A DNA stretch of 64,000 nucleotides from Candidatus Binatia bacterium. GTDB taxonomy: Bacteria; Desulfobacterota; Binatia; Bin18. How positions within the stretch are numbered: position 1 is the stretch's first letter; each line of letters opens with the position of its first letter. The position numbers and the translations under genes were made by a program. Shown here piece after piece: positions 4,378-36,374 of this stretch. Below the pieces are notes generated by a model that was given only the letters and a program-made list of their open reading frames with translations, had not been told where the DNA came from and made no database searches. The stretch is taken from contig OY729511.1 of the NCBI GenBank assembly GCA_963422435.1, positions 728,103 through 792,102 on the forward strand, read 5' to 3'.

Positions 4378-4576
4378 TCTCTCCTGTGTGGCGCTGAGTA
4401 CCCGGCGGGTGCCGGGCCGTGTCCACATCACAACAGGGAGTGGGATGGGGTCCTGCCCATTCACCACGACGTGAACGGCAACGAAGCTGTCAGGTATACG
4501 TGCGGATGTCAACATAGGGCCGTGCCCTGGATTTCGCTCCTTCAATTTGAGACAGTACCCTTCCAGAAGGAGTACT

Positions 4577-5806
4577 ATGAATTCCAGCACGGTCCCAGCC
4601 CGCATTGAGTCCCTGAAGGTGCAGAACTTTCGGGCGCTGCGCAAAGTCGAGTTCAAGAAGCTCGCGCCCCTGACCGTGCTGCTTGGCCCCAATGGTAGTG
4701 GCAAGTCCACGGTCTTTGACGTGTTCGCGTTTCTGGCCGAGTGCTTTGAGTTGGGGTTGCGCCGGGCTTGGGATAAACGCGGGCGAGCCAAGGAACTCAA
4801 GACGCGCGGCGCACAGGGAGCGGTGACCATCGAGATCAAGTATCGGGAACCCGGCTATCCGCTCATCACCTATCATCTGGCCGTTGATGAACGTGACCGC
4901 GCGCCGGTGGTCGTGGAGGAATGGCTGGGTTGGAAGCGGGGGAGTCATGGGCAACCGTTTCGATTCCTAGAATATGCGCACGGCCAGGGACGAGCGGTTA
5001 GTGGCGAGAGGCCGGACCAGCAGGACAAGAGGGTGGATATTCTGCTCAAATCCCCTGACCTGCTGGCAGTCAACGCGCTTGGACAGTTCGCCGGGCATCC
5101 GCGCGTGGTGGCACTCCGCGACTTTGTCACCGGCTGGCATGTATCGTATCTGTCAGCCGACAGCGCGCGCGGGCAGCCCGAGATGGGACCCCAAGAACGG
5201 CTGAGCAAAACGGGCGACAACCTCGCCAACGTCATTCAATACCTGGCTGAACAGCATCCAGAACGGCTGGAGAACGTCTTCACTATCCTGCGCCGACGGG
5301 TACCGCGCATTGAGCGTGTGCTGGCCGAGACCATGCCCGACGGGCGCCTGCTGTTGCAGATCAAGGACGCCCCGTTCAGCCACCCGGTGCTGGCCCGTTT
5401 CGCTTCCGACGGCACGCTGAAGATGCTGGCCTATCTGGTGCTGCTGTACGACCCCGAACCACCGCCCTTCATTGGCATCGAAGAGCCGGAAAACTTCCTG
5501 CACCCACGGCTGCTGGCCGAACTGGCCGAGGAGTGCCGCGCGGCCAGTGAACGCACCCAGTTGCTCGTGACCACCCATTCGCCGTTTTTCCTGAACGCCT
5601 TGCGGCCTCAAGAGGTACGGGTCCTGTGGCGCGACGATCGGGGCTATACACAGTCGCAACACGTGGCTGATTTACCCAAGGTGCGCAATTTCCTGGAGTG
5701 TGGCGGGCTGCTGGGAAACTTATGGATGGAGGGATATTTCAGCGTGGGTGATCCGCTGGTCAATCAAGGCGCGCCGACCGCTCCTCCACAAAGGCCCAAG
5801 CTGTGA
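4577..5806 (+). CDS. AAA_21/AAA_15-type ABC ATPase (OLD / AriA / AbiLi-like)
   Basis: GAAGGAG RBS, ATG 4577. Walker [12 protein letters not shown], Walker B/D-loop [14 protein letters not shown]-loop VTTHSP: an SMC/RecF-like ABC ATPase typical of defence-associated ATPases. Confidence 0.8.
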
Positions 5807-6426: not shown

Positions 6427-6467
6427 AACTTGCTCAATAAACGGTGTAACAATTTGAGAGGACGCCT

Positions 6468-7544
6468 ATGGACTTCGGAGTGGGCTTTCAGTCGCATATT
6501 CACAACGGATGGAAACACGCCCTGCTGGCCGAGCAGATGGGGTTTACTCATGCCTGGTTTGTGGACTCACAGTTGATTACCTCGGACGTATATGCCTGCA
6601 TGACCCTGGCCGCCGCGCATACCACAACGATTCGACTCGGCACCGGCGTCACTATTGTTGGGACGCGGATTCCCCCCGTTATTGCGCATTCGATTGCCAC
6701 CATCAATCAGCTTGCGCCCGGTCGGGTGATTCTCGGTCTGGGCACCGGCCATACGGCCTGGCGGACCATGGACATGCCACCGGTTTCGCTCGCAGCGTTC
6801 CGGCACACGGTCGAGGTCTGTCAGGGCCTGCTGCGGGGCGAGACTGTCGCCTATCACGAGCGCGGACGGCAGAGCCGGATTCGGTTCATGGATGTTGAGC
6901 ACGGCTATATTAACGTGCGCGAGCGCATCCCTATCTATCTGGCGGCCTCGCACCCCAAGGCTCAGGCCCTGGCCGGTGAGCTGGGCGACGGCCTGTTGAC
7001 CCTGAGCCTGCTCGCGCCCGAGTCGCTCACCCGCACTCTGGCGGCAGTCGCACAGGGCTGGGAGGGACGGGACGGCGGGAAACCGGCTGACTTCGGTGTG
7101 GTCACGCTCGGCATCTCCTGCGTGCTGCAACCCGGCGAGGCAGTGAACAGTCCGCGCGTGCTGTCACGGGTCGGTCCGCGCATTGCGGTGGCCCTGCACT
7201 ATGCCTATGAAGTCGCCAGACAGGGCAAAACGGTGCCGCCTTTTTTACAACCCTTCCTGACTCCGGAGTACCAGCGCTATCTGGATGAGCGCTGGGAAGA
7301 CGTACACGCCACGCACTCGCGCTTTCTGCATCCGGGCGAAGAAAAATTCATTACCCCCGAGGCTATTCGGGCCATGAGCCTGACCGGCTCGCGCGCTGAC
7401 ATCCTCGAACGTCTCGCTCAGCTTGAAGCCGCCGGACTCACCCAGATGGTGGTCTCACCCCCGTGGGGTCTGGTGGAAGAAAGCATCGTGGAGTTCGCCC
7501 GAGAGATTATTGGGCCATACACACAGCTCACCACTCGTCACTGA
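6468..7544 (+). CDS. LLM-class (luciferase-like) flavin/F420-dependent oxidoreductase
   Basis: 358 aa. N-terminal FGVGFQSH... and a TIM-barrel LLM-like sequence with GLGTGH motifs. Confidence 0.75.
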   Translation: MDFGVGFQSHIHNGWKHALLAEQMGFTHAWFVDSQLITSDVYACMTLAAAHTTTIRLGTGVTIVGTRIPPVIAHSIATINQLAPGRVILGLGTGHTAWRTMDMPPVSLAAFRHTVEVCQGLLRGETVAYHERGRQSRIRFMDVEHGYINVRERIPIYLAASHPKAQALAGELGDGLLTLSLLAPESLTRTLAAVAQGWEGRDGGKPADFGVVTLGISCVLQPGEAVNSPRVLSRVGPRIAVALHYAYEVARQGKTVPPFLQPFLTPEYQRYLDERWEDVHATHSRFLHPGEEKFITPEAIRAMSLTGSRADILERLAQLEAAGLTQMVVSPPWGLVEESIVEFAREIIGPYTQLTTRH

Positions 7545-7624
7545 CCCCTCGCCACTCCCCAAGGGGTTTGGAATCAGCGGCTGAAACCGCTAGGCTGAGA
7601 ACCATTCTCCTGGAAGGACAAAAT

Positions 7625-8473
7625 ATGGATACGACGCAAGACGAAGCAGTACGCTATGAACAGGTCGGACATATCGGCTGGCTGAGACTCAATCGGGCGG
7701 ACAAGCTGAACGCCATGACGCCCCAGATGTGGCAAGCCTTACGGGAACTCGGCCACACGCTTTCCACCGAAGAACACGCCCGTGAGAACCAGCTACGGGC
7801 GCTCGTCGTGATGGGCGAAGGCCGCGCGTTCTCGACCGGGATCGATACCTCGGCCTTTGGTGGCGTGGTCTTTAACGGACATGAACGTGATCCTGTGCCC
7901 GAGGTGGTGGCCGACGATGATCCCATGGTGTCCATTATCCAGGGCTTTCAGGAAGCCTTCACCTGGCTTGAAGAAGCCCCCTATCCGACCATTGCCGCGG
8001 TCCGGGGCTATGCCTTGGGCGCGGGCATGCAGATGGCGCTGGCCTGCGATATCCGGGTGGTCGCCCGCGGCAGCCGGCTGGGCTTGCTGGAACATCGCTA
8101 CGGCCTCATCCCCGACCTGGGCGGCACCCAACGCCTGCCCCGACTGGTCGGTACGGGTAAGGCCAAGGAGCTCATCTTCACCGCGCAGCAGATTGAGGCC
8201 GAAGAAGCCTACCGGATCGGTCTGGCCGAACAACTCGTTGACGACGAGGCATTGGAGGCGACCGTGACGGACCTGGCAGACCAGTTGGCCAGTCAGCCGC
8301 CGCTGGCCGTGCGCTATGCCAAGCAGGCGATTGACGCCAGCCAGTATCTTTCCGTCCGAGACGGACTCCTGCTGGAAGCCAAGAGCCAGGCGGTCTGCGT
8401 TCGCTCCCAGGACGCCAAGGAAGCGGTGCGGGCGTTTATGGAAAAACGGATGCCCCGCTACTCGGGGCAATAG
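7625..8473 (+). CDS. enoyl-CoA hydratase/isomerase (crotonase family)
   Basis: AGGAAGGA RBS then ATG 7625 (MDTTQDEAVRYEQVGHIGWLRLNRADKLNAM). Crotonase motifs (GEGRAFSTGID, oxyanion-hole region). Confidence 0.85.
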   Translation: MDTTQDEAVRYEQVGHIGWLRLNRADKLNAMTPQMWQALRELGHTLSTEEHARENQLRALVVMGEGRAFSTGIDTSAFGGVVFNGHERDPVPEVVADDDPMVSIIQGFQEAFTWLEEAPYPTIAAVRGYALGAGMQMALACDIRVVARGSRLGLLEHRYGLIPDLGGTQRLPRLVGTGKAKELIFTAQQIEAEEAYRIGLAEQLVDDEALEATVTDLADQLASQPPLAVRYAKQAIDASQYLSVRDGLLLEAKSQAVCVRSQDAKEAVRAFMEKRMPRYSGQ

Positions 8474-8503
8474 AAAGAGGCGGGACAGTAAAGGAGGCGG
8501 ACA

Positions 8504-9325
8504 ATGACAGACCACGGCTATGCCCGACCGGACATGCTGGCAGAGACCCAATGGCTCGCGGCGCATCTCCAGGATGACAACCTGCGGCTCGTCGATTGTG
8601 ATAATCGCGAAGCCTACCGCCGTGCCCATATTCCGGGTGCGATTCCCGTTCGCGGCCATCATTATTTCAAGGAAAAAGAAGGTGCGCCGCATATCATGGG
8701 CCCGGACCAGTTTGCTCAGACCATGGGAGAGATGGGCATTGGGGATGACACGCTGGTGGTTGCCTATGATGGCTTCAGCGGGCTGTACGCGGCCCGGCTC
8801 TGGTGGGCGCTGCACTATTACGGCCATACCAATGTCAGAGTGCTGAACGGGGGCTGGGACGCCTGGCTGGCCGAAGGGCGGCCAGTGACCAACGCCTCAT
8901 CCCGTCCGGCCCAGGCGACCTTTACGGCCCAGGCGAATGCAGACCTGATCGCCCGCTGGGAGCGGGTCCAGGCGGCCATTGCCGCGGAGACCGTGCTGCT
9001 CGATGTGCGCTCAGATGCGGAGTGGACCGGCGAAAACAACCGGGGCACCAAGCGGGGTGGGCGGATTCCCGGCGCGGTCCATCTCGAATGGCTCAACTAT
9101 GTGGACCCCCAGACAAAAAAGTTCAAGCCCGCGGACGAACTTCGCCCCATGTTTGAGCAGGCCGGGGTCAAGCCCGAGGGTGAGGTCGTCACCTATTGAC
9201 AGGGTGGCATCCGTGCGGCGCACGGATTGTTCACCCTTCGCTTGCTCGGTTTTGACAAGGTACGGAATTACGATGCCTCCTGGGCCGAATGGGGCAATCG
9301 CGAGGACCTCCCGCTGGAAAAATAG
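8504..9325 (+). CDS. two-domain rhodanese (thiosulfate/3-mercaptopyruvate sulfurtransferase family) with in-frame TGA (9197-9199) at the catalytic Cys position; candidate selenoprotein
   Basis: ORF 8504..9199 ends VVTY-TGA. The same frame continues [41 protein letters not shown] to TAG 9323-9325. This reproduces the TST/MST active-site loop C(R/Q)xGx(R/T) and the C-terminal YDGSWSEWG-like motif, with TGA where Cys is expected. Confidence 0.6.
9203..9235 (+). promoter_or_regulatory. SECIS-like stem-loop immediately downstream of the in-frame UGA
   Basis: GGTG-GC-ATCCGTG-CGGCG-CACGGAT-TGTT-CACC: 7-bp perfect upper stem with a G-rich 5-nt loop, an internal loop, and a 4-bp lower stem, starting 4 nt after UGA. 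Confidence 0.45.
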
Positions 9326-9331
9326 ACTCTG

Positions 9332-9916
9332 GTGACGCTCCCTCCTCATATGGCTGGATACAGACAATCGCTGGGGCTTCTGGCCGTTCTGCTCGCCTGC
9401 TTTCTTTTCCCCAACCGGGTCTGTCTCGCCCAGCCCGCGGTTGAGCCCGAACCCCACGGCAACCTGATCATCCAGACTCCGGGAGAACGGGCTCAGCCGG
9501 TCTTGGTCGATACCAAGGGTGCCGTCCCGCCCCAGAGCCAGTGGTGGCGCGATAGTGAGCTTTTGCGGGGCGGACTCCGGGAATTGACGCTACGCGAGCG
9601 CGGGCGGGGTGAACTCCTGGTCCATCCCCGGCTGGCCGGAAAAGATGTCAGTCCGCTGGCCCAGGTCATCATTTACGCCGCGGGGACGCAAAAAGAGGTT
9701 GCTCGCAGCGAGTCCGGCCAGGAACATCGCTTTGTCCTGGATACCGGCAGCTATGATGTGTTTGTGGCCAATCCAACGGGACGGGGAAAGCCCTTCGTGC
9801 TGGAACGCACGGAACTCCCGGATGAAAAAACTGTCGAAAAGGATGTCCACCTGGATGAACCGGCCGACCAGCCTGCGGCGCAGCCCCCAATCCATTCGGA
9901 ACCGCAGACCCGCTAA
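9332..9916 (+). CDS. secreted hypothetical protein
   Basis: N-terminal hydrophobic signal-like segment (LGLLAVLLACFLFP..AQP); no recognisable domain. Confidence 0.45.
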   Translation: MTLPPHMAGYRQSLGLLAVLLACFLFPNRVCLAQPAVEPEPHGNLIIQTPGERAQPVLVDTKGAVPPQSQWWRDSELLRGGLRELTLRERGRGELLVHPRLAGKDVSPLAQVIIYAAGTQKEVARSESGQEHRFVLDTGSYDVFVANPTGRGKPFVLERTELPDEKTVEKDVHLDEPADQPAAQPPIHSEPQTR

Positions 9917-9931
9917 GCCGGGGGAAATGAG

Positions 9932-10186
9932 TTGAAGTCCGTACACACCGACCAGTACCGCGAGTTCCGGGCCCTGATGGTTGCGGCGAGGAAAGCCGCC
10001 GGCCTGACTCAGACGGAACTCGCCAAGCAGTTGGGCAAATCGCAGTCCTACGTTTCAAAATATGAGCGCGGTGAGCGACGCCTGGATGTCATAGAGTTCC
10101 TGACGCTCGCCGACCTGCTGCATTGCGACCCCCACGCCTGTATCACCAGACTGAGCGCCCTGTCCCTCAAACGCGCGGTGTCATGA
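9932..10186 (+). CDS. XRE-family helix-turn-helix transcriptional regulator (TTG start)
   Basis: [26 protein letters not shown] is a classic HTH_3/XRE motif; 84 aa. Confidence 0.65.
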
Positions 10187-10431
10187 AAACGACCGGCGAT
10201 GTCATTCAATCGGCCAGTGTCCACCTGACTGCACTCACCGGCCATATTTTCGATCTCCTCACCATTGCCAAACCAATCTCTCCAGAAGCCGCTGTCAACT
10301 TGGCGAAAGTTTGGAAACAAATTTCGCCAAGATCAATAGAATCAACCATGCCGAGATCACCGCATTCAAGCACAAGGTGCTCAACGCTGAGCACCACGGA
10401 AGAACAATACGAGAGTGGGCACGGCTACTAG
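10183..10431 (+). CDS. hypothetical small protein (overlaps HTH gene stop by ATGA)
   Basis: ATG 10183 overlaps TGA of the HTH gene. No recognisable domain; competes with ORF 10311..10517 in another frame; possibly one frameshifted gene. Confidence 0.25.
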
Positions 10432-10517
10432 GGCGGGGGAACGAAACCAGGCTTCAAAAAGCACTCGGAGATAACCTGGACATCAGAGAAGCGGATTCTG
10501 AAGACAGCGTTCAATAA
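10311..10517 (+). CDS. hypothetical small protein (alternative frame, TTG start)
   Basis: 68 aa charged sequence with host-like GC3 in its first half; no domain recognised. Confidence 0.25.
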   Translation: METNFAKINRINHAEITAFKHKVLNAEHHGRTIREWARLLGRGNETRLQKALGDNLDIREADSEDSVQ

Positions 10518-11577
10518 CGCGCTTCTGCCCGAAATAGTAGTACGTCGGATCAATCTCGCTGCCAAAGGCAGGTCGCTTAAGGCCATGCGCGGCAATACAG
10601 GTCGTAAATAAACCGCCAAAAGGCTCCCACACAACATCACCAACCTCGGTTGAGGCTTCAATGATTCGTGAAATCAAGTCGAGAGGCTTCTGGTTCAGAT
10701 GCAGGGCCTTGCCGTTTAATCCAGGTGTTGTATACCGCTCCGCACCATGTAAAGCAGGGCGCTCCCATACATTTGTCACACCGTGCGGACAGCTAAATTT
10801 AGAACGGTATCCTTTCCAATCCTGCGCTGTAGCAGGTCTCTTCCCATCTAACGAAAAATACGGTCGGCCTTCCGGTTTGCCATACTTGTTCGCATAGCTT
10901 TGCATTTTCTCGAACATTTCCGGCGGGGGGTAGTACCACAAATGGCTTTGGTCAAGATATTTACGGACAGCAACGTCTTTGACACCACAAGCCTCGTTCG
11001 CCCGCTTCAGGGGTAAGCCGGTTCGTTTCCATTCCCGATACAGCCACTCCTTCAGCACCAGCCCATTCACACGGGGCTCAAAAACGTACTGAATGCAGAC
11101 TTCCGTCACAACGGGAAAGCGTCGTATTTTCTTTGTATTCACATTACCCGCGATATGGCCTTTCCCCTTATTCCACACATTGGCGTTTACATAGCGCCAC
11201 CCGTACTTTTCCAGGGTCGGGTGAACAGCCGCCCAACCGATTTCGGAATTCCAAAACCACAGGGTCGTGTCAGGTTTCGCTTTTCGCGCCCAGGCCGCAA
11301 TGTGCGGCTCATACCACTCTGGCAAACCCAAATGATCGGACGTGTCTCCTTCAAAGCCAAGGACACCATAGCCGCCGTCTGACACAATGGCGGTTGGCGA
11401 CTCCCACGAGTCGGACTGCTCAAGACTGTCGCCTAGCGATATGTGGACGAGTTCATCCGACCACACTGGCGACTCTGGTGTGAAATCCTCTTTCAACGCC
11501 CGCCCTCGCCCTACCGTGCTCGTCGGCGTTGTTTTTTTCTTCCTTTTGGGCGGCAAGGGGATTGTATCAGTTTCCAT
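10483..11577 (-). CDS. beta-class DNA methyltransferase (N6-adenine/N4-cytosine family), orphan, on lower-GC DNA
   Basis: C-terminal motif I region LHLNQKPLDLISRIIEASTEVGDVVWEPFGGLFTTCIAA matches the HPTQKP...DPFxGSGTT class. The N-terminal region has SDGGYG where (D/S)PPY is expected. N-terminal basic tract PKRKKKTT. Local GC is clearly below flanks. Confidence 0.7.
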   Translation of the reverse strand: METDTIPLPPKRKKKTTPTSTVGRGRALKEDFTPESPVWSDELVHISLGDSLEQSDSWESPTAIVSDGGYGVLGFEGDTSDHLGLPEWYEPHIAAWARKAKPDTTLWFWNSEIGWAAVHPTLEKYGWRYVNANVWNKGKGHIAGNVNTKKIRRFPVVTEVCIQYVFEPRVNGLVLKEWLYREWKRTGLPLKRANEACGVKDVAVRKYLDQSHLWYYPPPEMFEKMQSYANKYGKPEGRPYFSLDGKRPATAQDWKGYRSKFSCPHGVTNVWERPALHGAERYTTPGLNGKALHLNQKPLDLISRIIEASTEVGDVVWEPFGGLFTTCIAAHGLKRPAFGSEIDPTYYYFGQKRVIERCLQNPLL

Positions 11578-19466: not shown

Positions 19467-22400
19467 GTGCCCATATGTCATGTCGAAGAGCCAAAAATGA
19501 GAGCCGCCCTGGAGCCACAGATGGAAAAACACTCCCTCATACTGGACAATCGCTTACGCACAGTCGCCGATTATCTTTGCGCGCATCTGCCGGACGCCGA
19601 AGTCTTTCGCCTGGTTTCGGCGTATTTCAGCGTTTACGGCTACGAGGCACTGCAACACGAACTGAGCGGCATCAAAGACGTGCGGTTTCTCTTTGGCGAC
19701 CCCGCGTCAGCGGGCGAATTGGACCCTGGGGGGAAAGCGCCCAAATCCTTTGACCTGAGTGAAAAGGGATTGTTGCCCAACCACGCCTTGCAGCAGAAAT
19801 ACCTCGCACAGCAATGCGCCGCATGGGTACAAAGCCGGCGGGTCAAAATCCGGTCCATCAGCCAAGCCAATTTTCTGCACGGCAAGATGTATCTCACCGA
19901 ATCCGCGGACGCCGTTGGCTCAGTAGTGGTGGGGAGTTCCAACTTCACCCGGCGCGGGCTGGGCTGTGGCGCGGGCGCGAATCTGGAGATCAATCTGGCG
20001 ACTAGCGATAGGGAATCCTACGCTGAGTTACAAAAGTGGTTTGATGCGCTTTGGGCAGACAAGGAGTTGACCAGGGATGTCAAGCAAGCCGTCCTGGACG
20101 CGCTGAATCGCATAGGCCGAGACCACGCGCCTGAACTCGTCTATTACAAAACCCTGTACGCGCTGTTCCGGGATGACATCGAAGCCAGAAGGGACGGCGA
20201 AAGACAACTGGCGGATGCACACCTGTACGACACCGCAATCTGGAACGCGCTGTACGACTTCCAAAAAGACGGTGCCAAAAGCGCCATTGCCCGCCTGTTG
20301 CGGCACAACGGCTGCATCTTGGCCGACAGCGTCGGGCTGGGGAAAACCTATACGGCGTTGGCGGTCATCAGGTTCTTTGAACTGAGAAATGAACGGGTAC
20401 TGGTCTTATGTCCCAAAAAACTGCGCGACAATTGGGCACTCTATCCGGATTACACCGCAAATACGAACAACCCTTTTGACAAGGATCGCTTCGGTTACAC
20501 GCTGTTGTCACACACCGATTTGTCCCGCGACCAAGGCAAAGCCGGGGATGTTGATCTGGCCCAGTTCAACTGGCGCAATTTTGACTTGGTCGTCATTGAC
20601 GAATCGCATAACTTTCGCAATGCCAGCGTAAGCCGTCGGGACGAAGCAGGCAGAATCATCCGCCTCAGCCGCTACGAGCGACTCCTCGAAGAAGTCATCA
20701 GACAAGGGGCCAAAACAAAGGTACTGATGCTTTCGGCCACACCGGTCAACACCTCGCTCATAGACCTGCGCAATCAGGTCTATCTGATGACCGAAAAGCG
20801 TGAGGACGTTTTCCGGGACAGTTTGGGCATCGGCCACATCGGCGCTCTACTCGGGCAGGCGCAAAAGGCGTTTCAGAAGTGGGAAGAGGACGGCCAAAAA
20901 GACAAGACGGCGCTGCTGGAAAAATTGGGTGCCGATTTTTTTCGTTTACTCGGGGGTGTTTCCATTTCCCGCTCGCGGCGGCAGATCAAAAAATTCTACG
21001 CCGAGGAAATGAGCCGTATCGGCGAGTTCCCAACCCGCCAAAAACCGCAAAATTATTATCCGCCAACCGATTTGCAAGGCGTTTTATCCTACACGGATTT
21101 GTCCGAGCAGATAGAGCAATTCGCCCTGTCCATCTACCGGCCCTCCACCTACGTTGCCAGCGAACAGGCAAAGCAGCGCTTGGCCAAAGAAAAGCAAGAG
21201 CAACACTTCAATCAGCTAGACCGCGAACGCTTTTTGATCGGTATGATGCGGGTGAACTTTCTGAAACGGCTGGAGAGCTCGGCCCACTCGCTCACGGAAA
21301 CGCTCAGTCGCGCTATTGGCAAAATAGACGCCCTGCTGAAAAAGATAGAACGGTACGAACAGCAACAGACCCTACAGGACGCCCAAGCCGACATCCTGCC
21401 GGACGACGATGAAGACGACGAGGACTTTCTGATCAATCGGGCGCGGAACCCGTATCACCTCCAGGAATTGGATCTGCCGCGTTGGAAAACGGACTTGCTG
21501 AAAGATAGGGAGACCCTGACAGGAGCGTGGAAAAAGGTTGCAGCCATTGCGCCCGAGCGAGACGGCAAGCTACAGGAGCTTCGGAAGCATATCCGTGAAA
21601 AGACGGAGAACCCGACGACCGACCAAGACGGCAATCCCAATCGCAAGCTGCTGGTATTCACCACCTTCAAGGATACCGCCCGATACCTGTACACACACCT
21701 GTCGGATGTCGCCACGGAATTAGGCCTGAGCATGGTGATGGTCGCCGGGGATACAACGCAAACTACCTTTGGCGACAACAACTTTAACGCAATTCTGACC
21801 AACTTCGCACCGCGGGCACGCGGACGCACCGAGGGCACGAGCGGCGAAATCGATGTGCTGATTGCCACCGACTGCATTTCGGAGGGGCAGAATCTTCAGG
21901 ACTGCGACACGGTCTTGAACTACGACATCCATTGGAATCCGGTGCGTCTCATTCAGCGCTTCGGGCGGGTTGACCGCATCGGCAGCCGTCACAAGTCGAT
22001 ACGGATGCTCAACTACTGGCCGACCAAAGACATGGAGGTGTATTTGCGCCTGCAAAGTCGCGTGGAGGCCCGCATGGCCTTGGCGGACGCGGCGGCCAGC
22101 GGCAACGATGACCCGTTGAACGAGTCCACCTTTGAGCAGGCCCAGATGGAACTGAATTTCCGCGACCAGCAATTGCAACAACTGCGCCAAGAGGTGCTGG
22201 ACTTGGACGATTTGTCCGACGGCGTGGTCATGAGCGATTTTACCTTGGATTACTTCTTTGCCCAACTGCTGCGCTATCTGGAGAAAAACAAGGCGGAATT
22301 GGAAGCGACCCCTAACGGCGCATACGCGGTCACACAAGGCGAGGACAATACTATAAGACCGGGGGTGCTGTTTTTTCTGCGTCAGCGCAACGCGAGTGCG

Positions 22401-22799
22401 GACAAACAAGAAAAAATCGCCAGCCCAATTCATCCGTATTATGCGGTGTATATCCGCAACAGCGGCGACATTCGCTATAGTTGCGCCAACGCCCGACAGG
22501 TGTTGGAGGTATTTGAAGCGTCGGCAATTGGCAAGACCAAACCGCTGCAAAGGCTGTGCGACCAGTTTGACCGCGAAATTCAGAACGGCACTGACATGAG
22601 CCATTATGATAAACTGTTGGACGCAGTGATTACCCACATCAGCAGGGCAAACACCACAACCCAAATAACACATCTGGGGATTGGCGGTCAGCGCGACATC
22701 AAACTGCCCGTGCAATCCGCCAGTCCGAGCAACGGCGATTTCGAGTTGGTCACGTGGCTCGTTGTGCTTGAACCACGGGCTGACCCCAGGGCAAAATAA
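19467..22799 (+). CDS. PLD(HKD)-family nuclease domain fused to SNF2-family helicase
   Basis: N-terminal HKD-like motif FLHGKMYLTE....GSSNFT. SNF2 motifs: I ILADSVGLGKTYTA, II LVVIDESHNFRN, III LMLSATPVNT, V/VI VLIATDCISEGQNLQD...QRFGRVDRIGS. GTG start at 19467; alternative ATG at 19497. Confidence 0.85.
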   Translation: MPICHVEEPKMRAALEPQMEKHSLILDNRLRTVADYLCAHLPDAEVFRLVSAYFSVYGYEALQHELSGIKDVRFLFGDPASAGELDPGGKAPKSFDLSEKGLLPNHALQQKYLAQQCAAWVQSRRVKIRSISQANFLHGKMYLTESADAVGSVVVGSSNFTRRGLGCGAGANLEINLATSDRESYAELQKWFDALWADKELTRDVKQAVLDALNRIGRDHAPELVYYKTLYALFRDDIEARRDGERQLADAHLYDTAIWNALYDFQKDGAKSAIARLLRHNGCILADSVGLGKTYTALAVIRFFELRNERVLVLCPKKLRDNWALYPDYTANTNNPFDKDRFGYTLLSHTDLSRDQGKAGDVDLAQFNWRNFDLVVIDESHNFRNASVSRRDEAGRIIRLSRYERLLEEVIRQGAKTKVLMLSATPVNTSLIDLRNQVYLMTEKREDVFRDSLGIGHIGALLGQAQKAFQKWEEDGQKDKTALLEKLGADFFRLLGGVSISRSRRQIKKFYAEEMSRIGEFPTRQKPQNYYPPTDLQGVLSYTDLSEQIEQFALSIYRPSTYVASEQAKQRLAKEKQEQHFNQLDRERFLIGMMRVNFLKRLESSAHSLTETLSRAIGKIDALLKKIERYEQQQTLQDAQADILPDDDEDDEDFLINRARNPYHLQELDLPRWKTDLLKDRETLTGAWKKVAAIAPERDGKLQELRKHIREKTENPTTDQDGNPNRKLLVFTTFKDTARYLYTHLSDVATELGLSMVMVAGDTTQTTFGDNNFNAILTNFAPRARGRTEGTSGEIDVLIATDCISEGQNLQDCDTVLNYDIHWNPVRLIQRFGRVDRIGSRHKSIRMLNYWPTKDMEVYLRLQSRVEARMALADAAASGNDDPLNESTFEQAQMELNFRDQQLQQLRQEVLDLDDLSDGVVMSDFTLDYFFAQLLRYLEKNKAELEATPNGAYAVTQGEDNTIRPGVLFFLRQRNASADKQEKIASPIHPYYAVYIRNSGDIRYSCANARQVLEVFEASAIGKTKPLQRLCDQFDREIQNGTDMSHYDKLLDAVITHISRANTTTQITHLGIGGQRDIKLPVQSASPSNGDFELVTWLVVLEPRADPRAK

Positions 22800-22813: not shown

Positions 22814-23095
22814 ATGCTGTATTTTACAGACGAAGAACTGCTGCAAATCATCGCAGCCGGCGAATCCGACCGCGTCGAGTTCAAGGAGTCTTTATCCGGC
22901 GACGCCGCCACCAGAATCAGGGAAGCCATCTGCGCCTTTGCCAACGATTTGGCCGGTCACGACAAACCCGGTTTTGTGTTCGTAGGCGTGAAGGACGACC
23001 GAACAATGGGTGATCTCGTTGCCGCCACCGACGCCCGCAGGGCTTTGGCGACAAAGATAGTGCACAAAATCGGGCTTGGCCCGGGTCTCGAATAA
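22814..23095 (+). pseudogene. AlbA_2 (Schlafen-like DNA-binding) domain fragment
   Basis: ESDRVEFKESL...ICAFANDLAGHDKPGFVFVGVKDD matches the AlbA_2 N-terminal domain. Only 93 aa, and it overlaps the start of the downstream methyltransferase. Confidence 0.45.
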
Positions 23096-23117
23096 CCCGC
23101 CTCACAAAAGAAGCAAC

Positions 23118-26100
23118 ATGGACCGAGCAAAAGGGCATAGACGCACTGACACGCTGGTAGAAGCGGTGAAAGCCGGCCTTGCGACAATGCCAACTGACGA
23201 TGTATTGACAACGGCTCAAAACCTGCTCGGGGTTCTGGGCTACCGGAGCAGCCGCACGCTGCACGGCCAGTCCGGCAATGTTGACGACTTCATCGGGCAG
23301 TTCCCCGCTCCCAAGTCCAACACGGCGACCGAACAGGCGTTCCGCGAAAATGTCCAATCCGTACAGTTCGTCTTTCAACTCACAAGTGATGAAATTGCCT
23401 CAGCCAAGCCGCCAACGCCCGGGCTTGAGACCGCTTCCTTTGACACAGGACACCCGCAGAGTTTTTTCTTTTTCGCCGTTGAGTTGAAGGAAGCCAACTA
23501 CGCCCGGAGCAAATACGCCGAGTTCACGCGCGAGCTGAACAAGCGACTGATTGCGCCAACGGTGGTGCTTTTCACAACACAACAAGGTCGTCTCACGTTG
23601 GCTTTTGTTCACCGCCGGCAACACAAACATGACCCGAGCCGTGATGTATTGGGCAGTGTGTCGCTGGTGCGTGACATCAATCCAACTCAGCCGCACCGCG
23701 CCCACCTGGACATCCTGGCCGAACTGTCGCTGGAACATCTTCTGTCTTGGATGAGCGACCACAACAAGCCCCATGATTTCGATGGCCTGTTAGCGGCCTG
23801 GCTCAACGCCCTGAATACCGAAGCCCTTAACAAACGGTTCTACACCGAGCTGTTCGACTGGTTCGAGTGGACGGTAGGCGAGGCGACCTTCCCGACCCAA
23901 GAACAGAAAGTCTTGCCACCCGAAGAGCATAGTATTCGCCTCATTACTCGCCTGCTGTTTGTCTGGTTCATCAAGGAGAAAAGGCTGATTGCGGAGGATT
24001 TGTTCAACGAGACGAAAATTGCAGACCTGTTAAAAAACTACGACCGCGACACGGGCGATTCGTACTACCGCGCCGTGCTGCAAAACCTGTTTTTCGCCAC
24101 CCTGAACACCGAGATAGACAAGCGCGGCTTCAGCAAAGAGAAAGACTCTACCCACCGCAATTTTTCGCTGTACCGCTACAAGTCGGAGATAAGCGACCCG
24201 GAAAAACTGCTGGCCTTATTCGCCCGAACACCATTCATCAACGGTGGTTTATTCGACTGTCTGGACAGCGAAGAAGGCATCCGGGACGGCGGCTACCGGA
24301 TTGACTGCTTTTCTGACAACGAGCGGCATTACACCAAGTTGAGCCTTCCCAACCGTCTGTTCTTTGGCGAACATGGGCTGATTCCCCTGTTCAACCGCTA
24401 CAAGTTCACGGTGGAGGAGAACACGCCGGTCGAGCAGGAAGTGGCGCTAGACCCGGAGCTTCTGGGCAAGGTGTTCGAGAATCTGCTGGCCGCCTACAAC
24501 CCGGAAACCCGCCAAACCGCCCGCAAGCAGACCGGCTCGTATTACACGCCGCGCCCGGTAGTGGACTACATGGTGGACGAGGCTCTGCTGGCATCGCTCG
24601 CGCAGCAATGCCGGCCAACCGACGGTGCCGCCACGTTCTGGCAGGAGCGGCTGCGGTATCTCTTGAATTATGAGGACGCTTTCAGCGATGCAGACGAACT
24701 GTTTGACAAGGACGAAGCAGCAGGTATCGTGCGCACCATTGCGGGCCTCAAGATACTCGACCCGGCGGTTGGCTCTGGCGCTTTTCCGATGGGTGTCTTG
24801 CACAAGCTGACCTTGGCGTTGAGAAGAATCGACCCCGACAACACCCGCTGGGCAACTCTGCAAAAAGAACGCGCCCGAGAAAAGGCGGACGCAGCGTTCG
24901 AGACCAAAGACCGGCACGAGCGCGATGCTGAACTGCTGGAAATCAGCGAGACCTTTGAAAAGTATGCAGGCGACTTCGGGCGCAAGCTGTACCTGATTCA
25001 AAACAGCATCTTCGGCGTGGACATTCAGCCCATCGCCTGTCAGATTGCCAAGCTGCGCTTTTTCATCTCGCTGGCGATTGAACAGGAAGCCAACAACAAC
25101 CCCAACGACAACTACGGCATCAAGCCTCTGCCCAATCTGGAAACGCGCTTCATCGCCGCGGATACGCTGCTGAAGCTCAGCGGTGAGCGGATGCTGACCA
25201 GCGAAAAAGCGCAGATTTTGGAGCATCAGTTGCTTGAAAACCGCGAGCGGCATTTTCATGCCACCACGCGCCAGAAGAAACTGGCTTACAAAAAAGAAGA
25301 CAAGCGATTGCGCGGAGAATTGGCGCAGGCATTAGAAAGCCTTGGATTTCCCACGGATGACGCCAACAAAATCGCCCACTGGGACCCCTACGATCAGAAT
25401 GCAACGGCGGCTTGGTTCGATGCCGAATATATGTTTGGCGTGACCGGCGGCTTCGACGTGGTGCTGGGCAATCCGCCGTATATCCAGTTGCAGAAGAACG
25501 GCGGCACATTGGGCAGGAAATACGCGGGGCAGGACTTTCAAACCTTTGTTCGCTCCGGGGACATTTACCAGTTGTTCTATGAACGTGCCGGTCAACTGCT
25601 GAGCGACCAAGGGCACCTGTGCTTCATTACGTCCAATAGCTGGTTGAAGGCCAAATACGGCGAGAAGCTGCGCCGCTACTTCACAGACAAGCACACGCCC
25701 ATGAAACTGCTGGAAATGGGTAAGGACATCTTTGAAAACGCCATTGTGGATAACAACATCCTGCTGGTCAGAGCCGGCAAGAGCGATACCGTCGGCAGCG
25801 CCGTTGACGTGGAACGCCTGCCCGACCAAACCTTCCCGCCGGCTGAAAAACTCTGGGGTAAACTCCGGCTCCGAGACAGCGAGCCGTGGATGGCACTGTC
25901 TGCCGTCGAGCGGGGCATCATGGACAAGATGCAGGCCATCGGTACGCCGCTGAAAGAATGGGATATTGCCATTAACTACGGAATAAAAACCGGCTACAAC
26001 GCCGCGTTTATCGTCGATAAAAAGACCAAAAACGCACTGGTTGCCGAAGACCCCAGGTCGGAAGAGCTACTGAAACCGATTCTGCGCGGAAGGGATATCA

Positions 26101-26588
26101 AGCGCTATCGGGTGGAATGGGCGAGACTGTGGGTGATTGATTCACACAACGGTTACGGCGATGTGCCGCCAATCAATGTTGATGATTATATCGCCATCAA
26201 GCGGCATCTGGATCAATTCTATCCTCAGTTGAAAAAGCGGCAAGATAAGGGAATAACGCCGTACAATCTGCGCCATTGTGCTTACCACGAAGAGTTTCTG
26301 CGCGATAAGCTCGTTTGGATGGATCTGTCGCCACAAGGCCGGTTCGCCTACTCCAACGAGGAAGTGTATTGCAACAATAAGGCGTTCCTGATGATAGGTT
26401 TTCCGTTGAAATATCTCTGCGCGGTGTTGAACAGCACCATTGTCACTTGGCTGGTCAATAAAACTGCTCGGACAACCGGAGTCGGATTAACACAATGGGA
26501 AAAATTCACCGTCGAAGCTATCCCTATCCCCAACATCCCTGCCATAGAGCAACACCCGTTCATCCGCTTGATTGACCGTATCCTGTAA
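23118..26588 (+). CDS. MmeI / PglX-like large N6-adenine DNA methyltransferase (Type IIL/IIG-like)
   Basis: Motif X TGSYYTPRPVVDYMV, motif I LKILDPAVGSGAFP, motif IV VVLGNPPYIQ. FINGGLFD as in MmeI. N-terminal D-x12-ELK arrangement (FDTGHPQSFFFFAVELK) resembles the MmeI PD-ExK. ORF ends at TAA 26586-26588, though the conserved C-terminal tail continues in frame. Confidence 0.85.
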   Translation: MDRAKGHRRTDTLVEAVKAGLATMPTDDVLTTAQNLLGVLGYRSSRTLHGQSGNVDDFIGQFPAPKSNTATEQAFRENVQSVQFVFQLTSDEIASAKPPTPGLETASFDTGHPQSFFFFAVELKEANYARSKYAEFTRELNKRLIAPTVVLFTTQQGRLTLAFVHRRQHKHDPSRDVLGSVSLVRDINPTQPHRAHLDILAELSLEHLLSWMSDHNKPHDFDGLLAAWLNALNTEALNKRFYTELFDWFEWTVGEATFPTQEQKVLPPEEHSIRLITRLLFVWFIKEKRLIAEDLFNETKIADLLKNYDRDTGDSYYRAVLQNLFFATLNTEIDKRGFSKEKDSTHRNFSLYRYKSEISDPEKLLALFARTPFINGGLFDCLDSEEGIRDGGYRIDCFSDNERHYTKLSLPNRLFFGEHGLIPLFNRYKFTVEENTPVEQEVALDPELLGKVFENLLAAYNPETRQTARKQTGSYYTPRPVVDYMVDEALLASLAQQCRPTDGAATFWQERLRYLLNYEDAFSDADELFDKDEAAGIVRTIAGLKILDPAVGSGAFPMGVLHKLTLALRRIDPDNTRWATLQKERAREKADAAFETKDRHERDAELLEISETFEKYAGDFGRKLYLIQNSIFGVDIQPIACQIAKLRFFISLAIEQEANNNPNDNYGIKPLPNLETRFIAADTLLKLSGERMLTSEKAQILEHQLLENRERHFHATTRQKKLAYKKEDKRLRGELAQALESLGFPTDDANKIAHWDPYDQNATAAWFDAEYMFGVTGGFDVVLGNPPYIQLQKNGGTLGRKYAGQDFQTFVRSGDIYQLFYERAGQLLSDQGHLCFITSNSWLKAKYGEKLRRYFTDKHTPMKLLEMGKDIFENAIVDNNILLVRAGKSDTVGSAVDVERLPDQTFPPAEKLWGKLRLRDSEPWMALSAVERGIMDKMQAIGTPLKEWDIAINYGIKTGYNAAFIVDKKTKNALVAEDPRSEELLKPILRGRDIKRYRVEWARLWVIDSHNGYGDVPPINVDDYIAIKRHLDQFYPQLKKRQDKGITPYNLRHCAYHEEFLRDKLVWMDLSPQGRFAYSNEEVYCNNKAFLMIGFPLKYLCAVLNSTIVTWLVNKTARTTGVGLTQWEKFTVEAIPIPNIPAIEQHPFIRLIDRIL

Positions 26589-26708
26589 GCCAAAGCCGAC
26601 AACCCATCCGCGGATGCCAGCGAGCAGGAAGCGGAGATCAACCGGCTGGTGTATGGGCTATATGACCTGACGGAGGAAGAGATTAAACTTGTGGAGCAGA
26701 TGAGATAG
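26589..26708 (+). pseudogene. in-frame continuation (conserved methyltransferase C-terminal tail) cut off by the premature TAA
   Basis: AKADNPSADASEQEAEINRLVYGLYDLTEEEIKLVEQMR-TAG matches the ...EAEIDRLVYxLYGLTEEEIxIVE tail typical of Type I/IIG methyltransferases. Confidence 0.55.
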
Positions 26709-26755
26709 GATAAGCCAAGAATATCAGCAAATTAAAGATAAAATTTATTCTTTTA

Positions 26756-27145
26756 CTACTTGCCCTCGTTGCTACCCGAGGTTTTGTACAAGTCATCAAA
26801 ATGCCACAACTTTTCTATTAAATACTTAAGCAAAACACCCAAGGCACTACTAATAATATCCAGTGTAAAACCCAGTCCGGTGCTTGCCTGAAAACTTCCT
26901 GATGCTATTAGCCAAATTGCTACCGCAATTAGAACTATAATTATCAAGCAAAGGAAAGCCGATGCGGCTCTTGAAAACCAGGTTTGCCAAGCGAGATGCT
27001 TGAACCGGGAAATCTCTACGGTATGGCTATGTTCCTGCTGTCGGCTTTCTAATCCTTGCTCATGCTCTTGCTTTGCAGTCCCCCTTGGAGCTTCCTGTTT
27101 CTGCTCATCCAGTCGCGGGTCTTTAATGGGGGGTCTGTCATTCAT
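26756..27145 (-). CDS. small 2-TM membrane protein (candidate toxin partner of Panacea gene)
   Basis: 129 aa. Charged N-terminus then hydrophobic helices FLCLIIIVLIAVAIWLIA and GFTLDIISSALGVLL. Its start codon abuts the stop of the upstream Panacea gene. Confidence 0.5.
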   Translation of the reverse strand: MNDRPPIKDPRLDEQKQEAPRGTAKQEHEQGLESRQQEHSHTVEISRFKHLAWQTWFSRAASAFLCLIIIVLIAVAIWLIASGSFQASTGLGFTLDIISSALGVLLKYLIEKLWHFDDLYKTSGSNEGK

Positions 27146-27608
27146 TTAGTTGCTCATGATCTGTTTGAAATGTTTCTTTATTTCTTCCCGGTTTAATTTG
27201 TTGTTTGCTTTTTGCTTAGCCGATGACCAGGGTGTGTCTGATTCATGTGTCAAATTTGAAAGGTATAAACCAGAGTAAGGAGAATAGAGGTCCCAAACCT
27301 GGCCCAGCACCCAGTGGAAATCAACATCCTCCTCAGGCACTCCCTCTCTATCCACGGGTCCATATAATTCCCAGTTTTCCTTACTGATAGGCAAGCTTCC
27401 AAAAGTTTTGCGCATGATAGATGTCCGGGAATACTGGTCCATAGGGCCAAGCCTCTGGCTCATTCTCGATTGCTGGCTGGTTAAAACACGCCAAGTGCCA
27501 TCCATGAACCAGATATGCCAGTTTTTGTAACTTAAGTGGGCTAATCGGTGTATTTTGCTCAAACGACAGCTTCAACACACTATTGGCAACTTGCAGTGCA
27601 GAATACAT
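27146..27608 (-). pseudogene. Panacea-domain (DUF4065, SocA/GepA-like) protein, frameshifted
   Basis: N-terminal frame (27608->27381) MYSALQVANSVLKL...LKLQKLAYLVHGWHLA...EAWPYGPVFPDIYHA. C-terminal frame (from ~27409 to 27146) KTFGSLPISKENWELYGPV...LSNLTHESDTPW. The two halves join at an A4/T4 homopolymer near 27397-27406. AGGAGG RBS upstream of 27608. Confidence 0.65.
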
Positions 27609-27830
27609 TCTTGATTACCTCCTAGATCGCTTGTAGCTCAGATAGGCATTGAACTCAATTCACCAGTTGAGCTATCACTGCGCGGTAAAGAGCTGATTAT
27701 TATTCCTGTGGTTCCGCCCAGCTTTGACACTGGAGGGAGTGTCGAACCAAGTCAATGCGCGCAACTTGCACGGTGAAGTAGGTATCGTGGCCATATTGTA
27801 TATGTTGACATCTGCCGATTTGAAAAACTA

Positions 27831-28010
27831 CCAATCCCTAAAATTTCCGAATCGGAACGACAATCGTTCATAGCGTTGGTGGATAAAGTAATCGCTGGTA
27901 AAGAAAGCGGGTACAGACACCATCGGATGGAAGCCGAAATCGACGCGCGGATGTATGAGCCTTACAATCTGGCGGATAAGGAGATTGCGGCTGTGGATGA
28001 GTGCAAGTGA
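27831..28010 (+). pseudogene. remnant copy 2 of methyltransferase C-terminal tail
   Basis: IPKISESERQSFIALVDKVIAGK....MEAEIDARMYEPYNLADKEIAAVDECK-TGA parallels IPNIPAIEQHPFIRLIDRIL-AKADNP...EAEINRLVYGLYDLTEEEIKLVE of the full gene. Confidence 0.5.
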
Positions 28011-28110
28011 AATCACACAAAAAGGAGGGGCAGATTGGATTTTTTGAGAAGGGGAAAAACCTTGTTCAATTTGCTGAACGCAACAGACACCCCAAAAGCA
28101 AGGACAATCC

Positions 28111-28518
28111 ATGAATGGCATGGAAAAGGTCGTCAAACACCTTGAGATGACCCAAACCGTAATCAACCGATTGGGTAATAACTCCTTCCAACTCAAAGGT
28201 TGGAGCATGACCCTCATTGTGGCCGCGATGGTACTAATTGGTCGATATGGCTTGCAGAACCCATGCATCATCCTGACGTTTATCCTCCCTATTTTGGGAT
28301 TCTGGATTCTAGATGGGTACTTCCTTTGGCAGGAGAGGTTGTTCCGACAGGTCTATGATGAAATCAGGCAGCAAGATAACACCGACTTCAAGATGGATGT
28401 GATGAAGCACAGGGACAAACCCAAATGCAGTTGGTGGTCTGCCGCATTTTCTGTCACGCTCGTTATTTTTTACGCGGTCGAATTCGTATTTATTCTTGCC
28501 ACTTTCGTCATACTTTAA
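28111..28518 (+). CDS. small 3-TM membrane protein (upstream partner of TIR-like gene)
   Basis: 135 aa. Hydrophobic helices WSMTLIVAAMVLIG, CIILTFILPILGFWIL, WWSAAFSVTLVIFYAVEFVFILATFVIL. AT-rich codon usage; 14-nt gap to next gene. Confidence 0.55.
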   Translation: MNGMEKVVKHLEMTQTVINRLGNNSFQLKGWSMTLIVAAMVLIGRYGLQNPCIILTFILPILGFWILDGYFLWQERLFRQVYDEIRQQDNTDFKMDVMKHRDKPKCSWWSAAFSVTLVIFYAVEFVFILATFVIL

Positions 28519-28532
28519 ATGGAGGCGCCAGC

Positions 28533-28970
28533 ATGAGACACGTATTTTTTAGCTTCAAATATAAAGATGTTTCCAGAGCAATGGTTGTGAGAAATAGCTG
28601 GGTTACTCAAGGTAACGAAGCGGCTGGTTTTATAGATGCTGCGGATTTTGAGAAGATCAAACGGCAGGGTGATGCATCCATCAGACGCTGGATTGATAAC
28701 CAGCTACAAGGCACTTCCGTAACCGTCGTCCTAGTTGGACAACACACATGCAGTAGTCGTTGGGTAAGGTACGAAATAGATAAAAGTATTGAAAGAGGCA
28801 ACGGTCTTCTGGGTATCGACATAAGTAAAATCAACGATTTACAGGGACGCACCAGCGAACTATGTGGACAAATCCCAAAGGGTTCCCCATTCTACTTGTG
28901 GGACAAAGACAATGGTTATGGCAATCTCGGCGACTGGATTGAAAAAGCCGCACAGCAAGCCGGAAGATAG
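28533..28970 (+). CDS. TIR-like domain protein (DUF1863 / ThsB-like)
   Basis: GGAGG RBS, ATG 28533. MRHVFFSFKYKDVSRAMVVRNSWVT...SSRWVRYEIDKSIERGNGLLGI matches the ThsB/DUF1863 TIR-like signature as I recall it. Confidence 0.65.
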   Translation: MRHVFFSFKYKDVSRAMVVRNSWVTQGNEAAGFIDAADFEKIKRQGDASIRRWIDNQLQGTSVTVVLVGQHTCSSRWVRYEIDKSIERGNGLLGIDISKINDLQGRTSELCGQIPKGSPFYLWDKDNGYGNLGDWIEKAAQQAGR

Positions 28971-28971
28971 G

Positions 28972-29069
28972 GACACCACCGAACAGGAAGCCGGGATAGA
29001 TCACAACTGGTCTACGCGCTGTACGGGCTGACGGAGGGGGAATTTGACATTGTGGAGGGGGAAAGATGA
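28972..29069 (+). pseudogene. remnant copy 3 of methyltransferase C-terminal tail (carries an indel)
   Basis: DTTEQEAGID (one frame) + QLVYALYGLTEGEFDIVEGER-TGA (adjacent frame) parallels DASEQEAEINRLVYGLYDLTEEEIKLVE. The TGA overlaps the ATG of the next gene (ATGA). Confidence 0.45.
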
Positions 29070-30295
29070 GTGCGTCCGAACGGCAAGACACAACCTCTAC
29101 AATCTTGGCTTTGATTCAGGAAATCATGGAAAAGTCCGCCGATGGAGACTATATCTATCGCGGTGAACCAGAGTGCTACCCCAAAGTATCCTCAACGCTT
29201 CATCGCGAATACGCAGAGGTGGATGCGGAGAACTTTAAATTGGAGGACGTCCAGAAGGAGATACTGGAACAGGCCAGGAAATACACAGCCGTAACTGACG
29301 CGCTGGAAATCTTGACAGAACTCCAGCACCACGGCGGCAACACCAATCTTATCGATTTTACGAACGACTGCCACATAGCGCTCTTTTTCGCCTGTGACGG
29401 CTCCCCTGACAAAGATGGCAGGGTTATCCTGCTGAAAAAAGCAACGGAACAAGGCCAGATCAGAGAGCCCCGGAACCCTGTCAACCGCGTCATCGCTTAG
29501 AAGAGCATCTTTGTGCAGCCACCGAAAGGCTTTATTAACCCCGACGGAGAAATCATCATCCCGAAAAACCTCAAACAGCCCATACTGAACCATCTGCGAA
29601 AATACAACGGCATATCCACCGAAACCATCTACAACGACCTGCACGGCTTTATCAAACATCGGGGAATCCACCAAAGCGCCTACACGGAGTTTTACAGAGG
29701 TCTGACTTATTCGAGAAAGGGAGTTGAATCGGCAGACAAGGAAGAACAACAGAGATTCTATGAAAAGGCCATTGCACATTACACTGAAGCCTTGAGATTG
29801 AACCCAAATCTTGCCGAGGCATACAACAACCGGGGCACCGCCAAGGTAGAACTTGGACAACACCAGGAAGCGATTGTGGATTTTGATACGGCGATAGGAA
29901 TCAATCCGAACCATGCCGCAGCCCGCAACAACCGGGGAATCGCCAAGGTAGAACTTGGACAACACCAGGAAGCGATTGTGGATTTTGATACGGCAATAAA
30001 CCTCAATCCGCACGATGCCAAAGCCTACAACAACCGGGGCACCGCCAAGAGAGGACTTGGACAACACCAGGAAGCGATTGTGGATTTTGATACGGCAATA
30101 AACCTCAATCCGCACTATGCCGAAGCCTACTACAACCGGGGCACCGCCAAGAGAGGACTTGGTCGGAATCAGGAAGCCCGCGAAGATTTTCAAACATGCC
30201 TCACCCTGGCAAAAGCACAGGGTAATGCCGAGCTTGTCGAGCTTGCCCAAAAGGCGCTGGATACTCTGGGGCTTGGTAGCGGTAGTTCGGATTAG
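29066..30295 (+). pseudogene. FRG-domain protein with C-terminal TPR repeats, interrupted by in-frame TAG (29498-29500)
   Basis: FRG-like motifs YIYRGEPECYPKVSSTLHRE and LQHHGGNTNLIDFTNDCHIALFFA. ORFs 29066..29500 and 29513..30295 are in the same frame, separated only by the TAG. The C-terminal half is four near-identical TPR units. Confidence 0.55.
29806..30180 (+). repeat. four tandem ~102-bp near-identical repeats (each one TPR unit) inside the FRG-TPR gene
   Basis: Repeating GCCTACAACAACCGGGGCACCGCCAAG...CAACACCAGGAAGCGATTGTGGATTTTGATACGGC(G/A)ATA units with a few substitutions. Confidence 0.8.
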
Positions 30296-36137: not shown

Positions 36138-36301
36138 TGGCAGTCATCCCCTCTCCAACTCCTTTTCTCCCCCATTCATTGCACGAGCACCTATCATAGG
36201 TGAAGGAGGGTAACGGCAATACATACATCCGCCGTCCGATTCTCACGGGGGAGATCAGCCGAGAACCGGCTTGGTGTGCTGCGGGAGGGAAGGGGAAAAG
36301 T

Positions 36302-36374
<73 letters not shown>

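Follow-up and report, generated by a model that had tools for sequence, protein, structure and literature searches.

The locus considered here occupies nt 26756–27608 of the window (the whole 64,000 nt stretch of contig OY729511.1 that was analysed, from a Candidatus Binatia bacterium), where two overlapping minus-strand reading frames with similarity to Panacea proteins lie directly upstream of a small gene for a predicted membrane protein. The arrangement recalls the PanA/PanT type of toxin-antitoxin (TA) pair, and the question it raises is whether this copy is a live module, with an antitoxin that has been misread, is made by recoding or works in two pieces, or whether it is the remains of one. 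The features referred to below are collected in Table 1.

Table 1. Coordinates of features of the panAT locus, its surroundings in the window, and the panT genes of related loci.
Feature	Position (nt)	Strand	Length	Remarks
panT candidate (P0121)	26756–27145	-	129 aa	ATG abuts panA stop
panT codon 96, GAT (Asp)	26858–26860	-		Gly (GGT/GGC/GGG) in 8/8 other family members
panA N-terminal fragment ORF	27381–27608	-	75 aa	66 native codons, 9 out-of-frame codons, TAA
Overlapping ORF	27146–27562	-	138 aa	last ~88 codons homologous to Panacea relatives
panA C-terminal reading frame	27146–27415	-		codons 68–154 plus TAA
Net 2-nt deletion in panA (GCG/C AAA)	27410–27411	-	2 nt	putting TA back gives Tyr67 and a 154-aa ORF
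HKD(PLD)-Snf2 helicase gene	19467–22799	+		PADLOC C3a139, E=5e-112
Type IIG RM/Eco57I-like gene	23076–26588, continuing to 26708	+	1170 aa	convergent to panT
Putative cassette boundary 1, last RM codons (AKADNPSADASEQEAEINRLVYGLYDLTEEEIKLVEQMR)	26589–26708	+	39 codons	match the normal C-terminus
Putative cassette boundary 2, type IIG RM C-terminus remnant	27822–28010	+	62 aa	upstream of panA; tblastn E=8e-6
PDC-M50A membrane protein	28111–28518	+		PADLOC E=1.5e-38
PDC-M50B/ThsB-like TIR protein	28530–28970	+		PADLOC E=9e-56; Pfam ThsB_TIR E=3e-25
FRG (PDC-S15)-TPR gene	29066–30295	+		in-frame TAG at 29498–29500
L001/L002 panT			126 aa	1-nt overlap (TAATG at L001)
L003 panT	6466–6852		128 aa	GTG start abuts TAA (TAAGTG, 0 nt)
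L004–L007 panT			137 aa	TAATG, 1-nt overlap (L004)
L008 panT			140 aa	TAATG, 1-nt overlap
L009 panT			112 aa	
L014 panT			142 aa	TAATG, 1-nt overlap; panA at 4537–5001

Two reading frames, one Panacea gene

A preliminary description of this DNA had read the two frames as parts of a single Panacea protein of about 154 aa, and had staked that assignment on a match of the merged protein to DUF4065. Both points were borne out. The merged protein, with the 154-aa ORF restored, matches PF13274 (SocA_Panacea, formerly DUF4065) over positions 1–112 of 113 (E=2.8e-14; 54.4 bits, the cut-off being 25.7 bits), while the N-terminal ORF alone covers positions 1–40 (E=8.8e-10) and the C-terminal ORF alone only positions 83–112, weakly. 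It also matches phrog_1281 (E=2e-39). The NCBIfam model SocA_antitoxin (NF047745) is hit with E=1.6e-24 and 86.5 bits, under the equivalog cut-off of 190; judged by these scores, the window PanA shares a domain with SocA but is no SocA orthologue.

The nearest database relatives are intact 154-aa proteins (P0001, P0002, P0004 and P0007, with 79, 74, 60 and 53% identity), and the aligned homologues are single-chain without exception (40/40). An AF2 model of P0001, the closest of them, forms one compact domain with a pLDDT of 96.4. Searches of the PDB with the PanA model (Foldseek) and of PDB sequences (phmmer) gave no meaningful match. The native part of the N-terminal fragment comprises helices 1–2, a beta hairpin and half of helix 3, and its ORF is preceded by a GGAGG Shine-Dalgarno sequence (nt 27622–27618). 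For the C-terminal part, a 98-aa product starting at nt 27442 (P0006) is present in the public collection.

Nature and reality of the frameshift

In a DNA alignment with five intact loci, window panA is a net 2 nt short. The window reads CAT GCG C AAA ACT TTT GGA, where the homologues have CAT-GCT/GAG/GAT-TAC-AAA (encoding H-A/E/D-Y-K-I-F-G-S). Insertion of TA at 27411/27410 gives HAYKTFGS, to be compared with HAYKIFGS or HEYKIFGS in the homologues, so that most simply the missing bases would be the TA of a tyrosine codon. To explain the sequence by a +1 insertion, a whole residue would have to be lost as well, which is less parsimonious given that the spacing Y64-K68-G71 is nearly invariant among the 40 PanA homologues.

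The shift had initially been placed within an A4/T4 homopolymer run and suspected of being an indel error in the reads, and neither view could be upheld. The A4 run occupies nt 27409–27406 and the T4 run nt 27404–27401; the deletion adjoins the A4 run and lies outside it, and the alignment rules out a homopolymer slip of ±1. That the frameshift is an artefact of sequencing or assembly, and that the true genome carries an intact, active panAT, is very improbable. The closeness of the deletion to the A4/T4 runs and the otherwise perfect conservation of PanA would speak for such an error, but a net change of 2 nt, located beyond the homopolymer, does not, and Logan contig L020 (run ERR11641160, 1332 nt) is 100% identical to nt 27077–28408 of the window, including the junction. 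This contig is a separate read-level assembly, built from reads that are possibly the same as those behind the genome assembly. Because it is identical across the junction, the frameshift is considered real and an assembly artefact largely ruled out. P0006, a product that depends on the frameshift, is recorded for both the 3.92-Mb source contig and the Logan contig. Moreover, indel errors do not appear to be frequent in the assembly, as long ORFs of 650–1170 aa elsewhere in the window are intact, and the lesions in neighbouring genes (described below) are substitutions.

Programmed ribosomal frameshifting (+1 or -2), by which full-length PanA would be produced at a regulated level, is scarcely credible. 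It would draw on the overlap of the frames and the A/T-rich shift site, but the intact homologues need no shift at that site, a slippery or stall motif is not recognisable, and the other broken copy of the gene (locus L015, see below) is disrupted at different places.

The membrane protein gene

The panA/panT junction reads AAC TAA ATG, with the stop at nt 27148–27146 and the panT start codon at nt 27145–27143 (gap of 0 nt), exactly as the abutting start and stop had been described. A Shine-Dalgarno sequence belonging to panT itself is absent in the window and in all homologues, and therefore translation of panT probably depended on coupling to panA.

The window PanT has a charged N-terminal region of about 60 aa, a first transmembrane segment at about residues 60–82 (TM1), a short loop, a glycine-rich second helix that reads G90-L-G92-F-T-L-D96, and the tail KLWHFDDL. 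Kyte-Doolittle analysis predicts transmembrane helices in the C-terminal half. TM1 is strongly hydrophobic (3.27 in the window, 2.6–3.3 across the family) and the second helix moderately so (1.55, or 1.72 with D96 changed to glycine, and 1.4–1.8 in homologues), its hydrophobicity being marginal throughout the family. An AF2 model shows helices at residues 21–81 and 89–118 with low confidence (pLDDT 59.7, too low for a fold search).

Members of the PanT family align end to end. They share a Q/H/E/K-rich N-terminal region with a conserved motif of about AKQEHEQ..LESR.QEH, a second helix with the sequence GLGFTLGIIS, and a conserved tail, KIWDFDDLHK. The family is very small, with about eight clusters among 5.8e9 and 1.8e9 proteins, six of which were found by a profile search of 5.8 billion proteins and two more via exhaustive phmmer or the loci themselves. 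One apparent match, P0127 (760 aa, 12 matched stretches), was rejected as the translation of a tandem repeat. Only sub-threshold matches were obtained in Pfam, NCBIfam, PADLOC and PHROGs (COX15-CtaA, TIGR01620, phrog_3996). JGI metagenome contigs contained no further family members and no representative of the same species, IMG/VR viral contigs and PLSDB plasmids contained no family members, and no encoding contig is listed for the window PanT itself (P0121).

The gene pair in other genomes

The TA proposal had hinged on Panacea genes being paired with membrane protein genes in other genomes, and such a pair recurred at all other loci examined: a small ORF lies directly 3' of panA at every other fetched locus with a close PanA relative. 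At loci L010/L011 and L012/L013, PanA proteins of about 44% identity are followed by proteins of 117–123 aa that have a PanT-like build (with a TAATG junction at L012); compared with the core PanT family by hhalign, the L010 and L012 partners gave a probability of 29% and nil, respectively, by which homology is not demonstrable. Carriers of the pair are MAGs labelled Nitrospirales and one labelled Arenicellales. Together, PanA and the PanT family occur in at least four GTDB species representatives as well as in metagenomic contigs, in differing neighbourhoods; the flanking genes differ, may be convergent or divergent, and no operon of more than three genes is conserved. Upstream of panA, homology between the window and other panAT loci reaches back no further than 14 nt from the ATG. 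Gene callers overlooked panT at L003, where it starts with GTG, as well as the panA of L014, and protein-database searches consequently under-count the pair.

Kurata et al. (2022) recognised PanAT pairs by genes lying no more than 100 nt apart, occurrence in at least two species, and the absence of a longer operon (PMC8832971). The gap of 0 nt, the presence in at least four species and the lack of an operon exceeding three genes place the window locus within all three of these in silico limits.

Comparison with known systems

The antitoxin gene comes first in the window, which is the commoner PanAT order (PMC8832971), and the same order is seen in the Bartonella and E. coli systems, whose genes are separated by, or overlap by, a few nucleotides. 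The systems of Bartonella apis/choladocola (T12/D11) and E. coli STEC O31 (T3) also share with the window a stand-alone Panacea protein that lacks an N-terminal accessory domain. In the Bartonella pair the stand-alone Panacea neutralises its toxin directly, touching the N-terminal region of the toxin and a short helix ahead of the transmembrane segment, and the PanA substitutions Y56A and H120E abolish neutralisation, in what was classed as recognition of a conformational epitope (PMC10440598). The tyrosine before strand beta-2 and the histidine after the late helix of Bartonella PanA are kept here as Y56 and H122. In the P0001 model, Y56 lies just ahead of strand 57–59 and H122, which is invariant, ends helix 114–121. 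On this structural correspondence, Y56 and H122 of the window PanA are probably the equivalents of Bartonella Y56 and H120.

The window PanT resembles T3 (WP_000019185.1) and T12 (WP_077993242.1) by architecture only, i.e. a charged N-terminus and a hydrophobic C-terminus. It belongs to an apparently distinct, very small family (GLGFTLGIIS ... KIWDFDDL) for which there is no Pfam, PADLOC or PHROG model. Three PanTs with predicted transmembrane helices depolarise the membrane (PMC8832971), and HokB served as comparator in that study. The action presumed to be shared with HokB, of a type I TA system, is that of a small helical membrane protein collapsing the membrane potential; Hok, however, has about 50 aa, one transmembrane helix and control by antisense RNA, whereas PanT, of about 130 aa, begins with a long soluble region and has a protein as its antitoxin. 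SocAB of Caulobacter crescentus, with SocA as the founding DUF4065 antitoxin, has the same Panacea domain, but SocA is a ClpXP adaptor for SocB, a toxin that binds DnaN, while the partner in the window is a membrane protein. A final difference sets the window copy apart from the Bartonella and E. coli PanAT pairs: its antitoxin is frameshifted and its toxin carries the substitution G96D.

A low-GC island of defence genes

The G+C content is 46–50% at nt 26000–30000 of the window compared with about 56–63% in the flanks, as would be expected if the cassettes were acquired horizontally. The genes of this region and those preceding it include a helicase gene and, immediately after it, a type IIG RM gene, and the order helicase-RM-panT-panA is also kept at L001/L002. 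In the window, the RM gene is interrupted by an in-frame TAA (nt 26586–26588) at a codon that specifies serine in the L002 homologue, and by this comparison the TAA arose by a nonsense mutation and cuts off the predicted tail. L001 and L002 are near-identical and come from one sample (ERZ19489113); in L001 (nt 7204–10628) the Eco57I-like gene is split into ORFs of 417 and 741 aa, and in L002 (nt 7213–10800) it is intact with 1195 aa, a difference that may reflect strain-level inactivation or phase variation. Divergent from panA are the PDC-M50A and PDC-M50B genes, which together form a candidate defence system of two genes and appear to be intact. Beyond these, the FRG and TPR ORFs share one frame and are parted only by the TAG (...NRVIA*KSIFVQ...), the second still matching the C-terminal part of PDC-S15, so that they probably represent a single defence gene with a nonsense interruption.

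Three diverged direct copies of the type IIG RM 3' tail, 65–73% identical in DNA, are found on the plus strand: the first two are those given in Table 1 as putative boundaries and the third lies at nt 29001–29066. These copies bound the panAT and PDC-M50 cassettes. At L003/L016 the order of cassettes differs, and the junction there (L016, nt 8400–8600) joins the left flank of the third window tail to the right flank of the first. The tails may be recombination boundaries for the shuffling of cassettes, or scars of deleted RM genes. Promoter and terminator scans returned sites that were no more numerous than in shuffled sequence, and Rfam had no match in the panAT region; the sole RNA gene in the window, a tRNA-Ala(GGC) at nt 36300–36373 (minus strand), is away from the island.

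Such surroundings raise the possibility that the pair serves in phage defence (abortive infection), or is some other membrane system, in which Panacea would do the sensing and the membrane protein would be the effector, perhaps in connection with the adjacent RM or helicase genes. Besides its place in an island with HKD-Snf2, type IIG RM, PDC-M50/ThsB-like and PDC-S15 genes, the pair is linked to an Eco57I-like RM gene in the window, at L001/L002, at L003 and, as a remnant, at L015, and a sensor role for Panacea has been proposed by Ernits et al. (2023; PMC10440598). As PADLOC models match neither panA nor panT, and no RM gene accompanies the pair at L004–L014, this is regarded as unlikely to be its principal identity; a role in defence or abortive infection would be compatible with a TA cassette, and overlaps that explanation rather than excluding it.

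Probable decay of the window copy

The change at PanT position 96 converts the motif G92xxxG96 to G92xxxD96. Glycine is present at this position even in a pseudogene copy, and G96D is the only private departure of the window PanT from otherwise invariant columns; comparably close family members have none. The substitution is non-conservative, and it may disarm the toxin.

The break in panA comes after residue 66, inside the helix formed by residues 61–70 (helix 3) of the single-domain fold in the P0001 model, so the intact single-chain Panacea fold is not encoded in the window, and Y56 and H122 are separated onto opposite fragments. Ribosomes translating panA now stop at nt 27383–27381. Since this is 235 nt ahead of the panT start, the presumed translational coupling of PanT has been lost. 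The decay appears to be recent, because all of the invariant PanA residues (17/17) are kept, both half-frames remain open, and dN/dS values between the window and L003 (0.19 for PanA, 0.53 for PanT) are like those between intact pairs (0.17 and 0.56).

A second decayed panAT was found in a Nitrospirales MAG, the sister genome OY729426, where nt 6001–6850 of L015 correspond to nt 7530–8530 of L017. Here panA has at least two frameshifts and panT is interrupted by a stop codon in frame near codon 32; of the neighbouring RM gene, which lies beside an integrase-like gene, only the ~30 C-terminal codons are left.

The good preservation of panA can also be taken to mean that the module still functions, with both PanA fragments made and reassembling, or one of them sufficing, against an active PanT. 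The fragments would be residues 1–66 plus nine others, and a C-terminal part starting at ATG 27415 or 27442. The half-ORFs overlap by 35–180 nt, an in-frame ATG (nt 27415–27413) sits exactly at the junction, no other conserved residue is lost, and dN/dS is not raised. Against this, the break falls within a core helix of a single compact domain, the residues required for neutralisation in Bartonella, where the epitope is conformational, would be carried by different fragments (PMC10440598), the internal ATGs have no Shine-Dalgarno sequences, and none of the 40 aligned homologues is split. A functioning split antitoxin is thus distinctly improbable, and a toxin that is still live and restrained by a two-piece Panacea protein is less likely than a relic.

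Taken together, the frameshift, the unique G96D, the decayed sister copy and the nonsense mutations in neighbouring genes indicate a recently inactivated relic. The preferred interpretation, to which a probability of roughly 0.65 is given, is that the locus is a type II TA cassette of the PanAT kind, present here as a recent relic marked by the 2-nt deletion, G96D and lost coupling. Of the original proposal of a PanA/PanT-like TA candidate, the kinship with PanAT stands, on the in silico limits described above, the conservation of the pair and its architecture; the implication of a live module does not, as this copy looks inactivated. The window cassette is most likely recently dead rather than a live TA candidate.

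Proposed mechanism and implications

In its intact form the cassette would be one operon, producing a 154-aa PanA from a strong Shine-Dalgarno sequence and then a membrane PanT of about 130 aa, the latter translationally coupled to PanA through a stop and start that abut or overlap by a single nucleotide. If it acts like the validated systems of Bartonella and E. coli, PanT would enter the inner membrane via its C-terminal helices, where it may self-associate through G92xxxG96 and cause depolarisation. The folded Panacea domain of PanA would attach directly to the charged N-terminal part of PanT and thereby neutralise it. Both the toxicity of PanT and this mode of neutralisation are extrapolated from the related systems.

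As to the order of events in the window, it is plausible that the toxin was disarmed first, leaving the antitoxin free to break. A fuller version of this account is put forward tentatively, namely that the membrane partner represents an undescribed PanT family, known from a few MAGs that are mostly Nitrospirales, and that the window has caught a TA system in the course of a death that spared its host, the toxin having been disarmed by the change from GxxxG to GxxxD and the antitoxin having frameshifted afterwards.

The panAT of the window does not overturn current understanding. For annotation, the locus is better given as a frameshifted panA pseudogene with panT than as two hypothetical ORFs. 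The intact loci L003, L001 and L004, the window copy with G96D and a frameshift, and the decayed L015 form a set of natural variants for the study of toxin determinants and the order of decay. With its charged N-terminus and glycine-motif helix, this rare, unannotated partner family joins the long list of toxins associated with the hyperpromiscuous Panacea domain.
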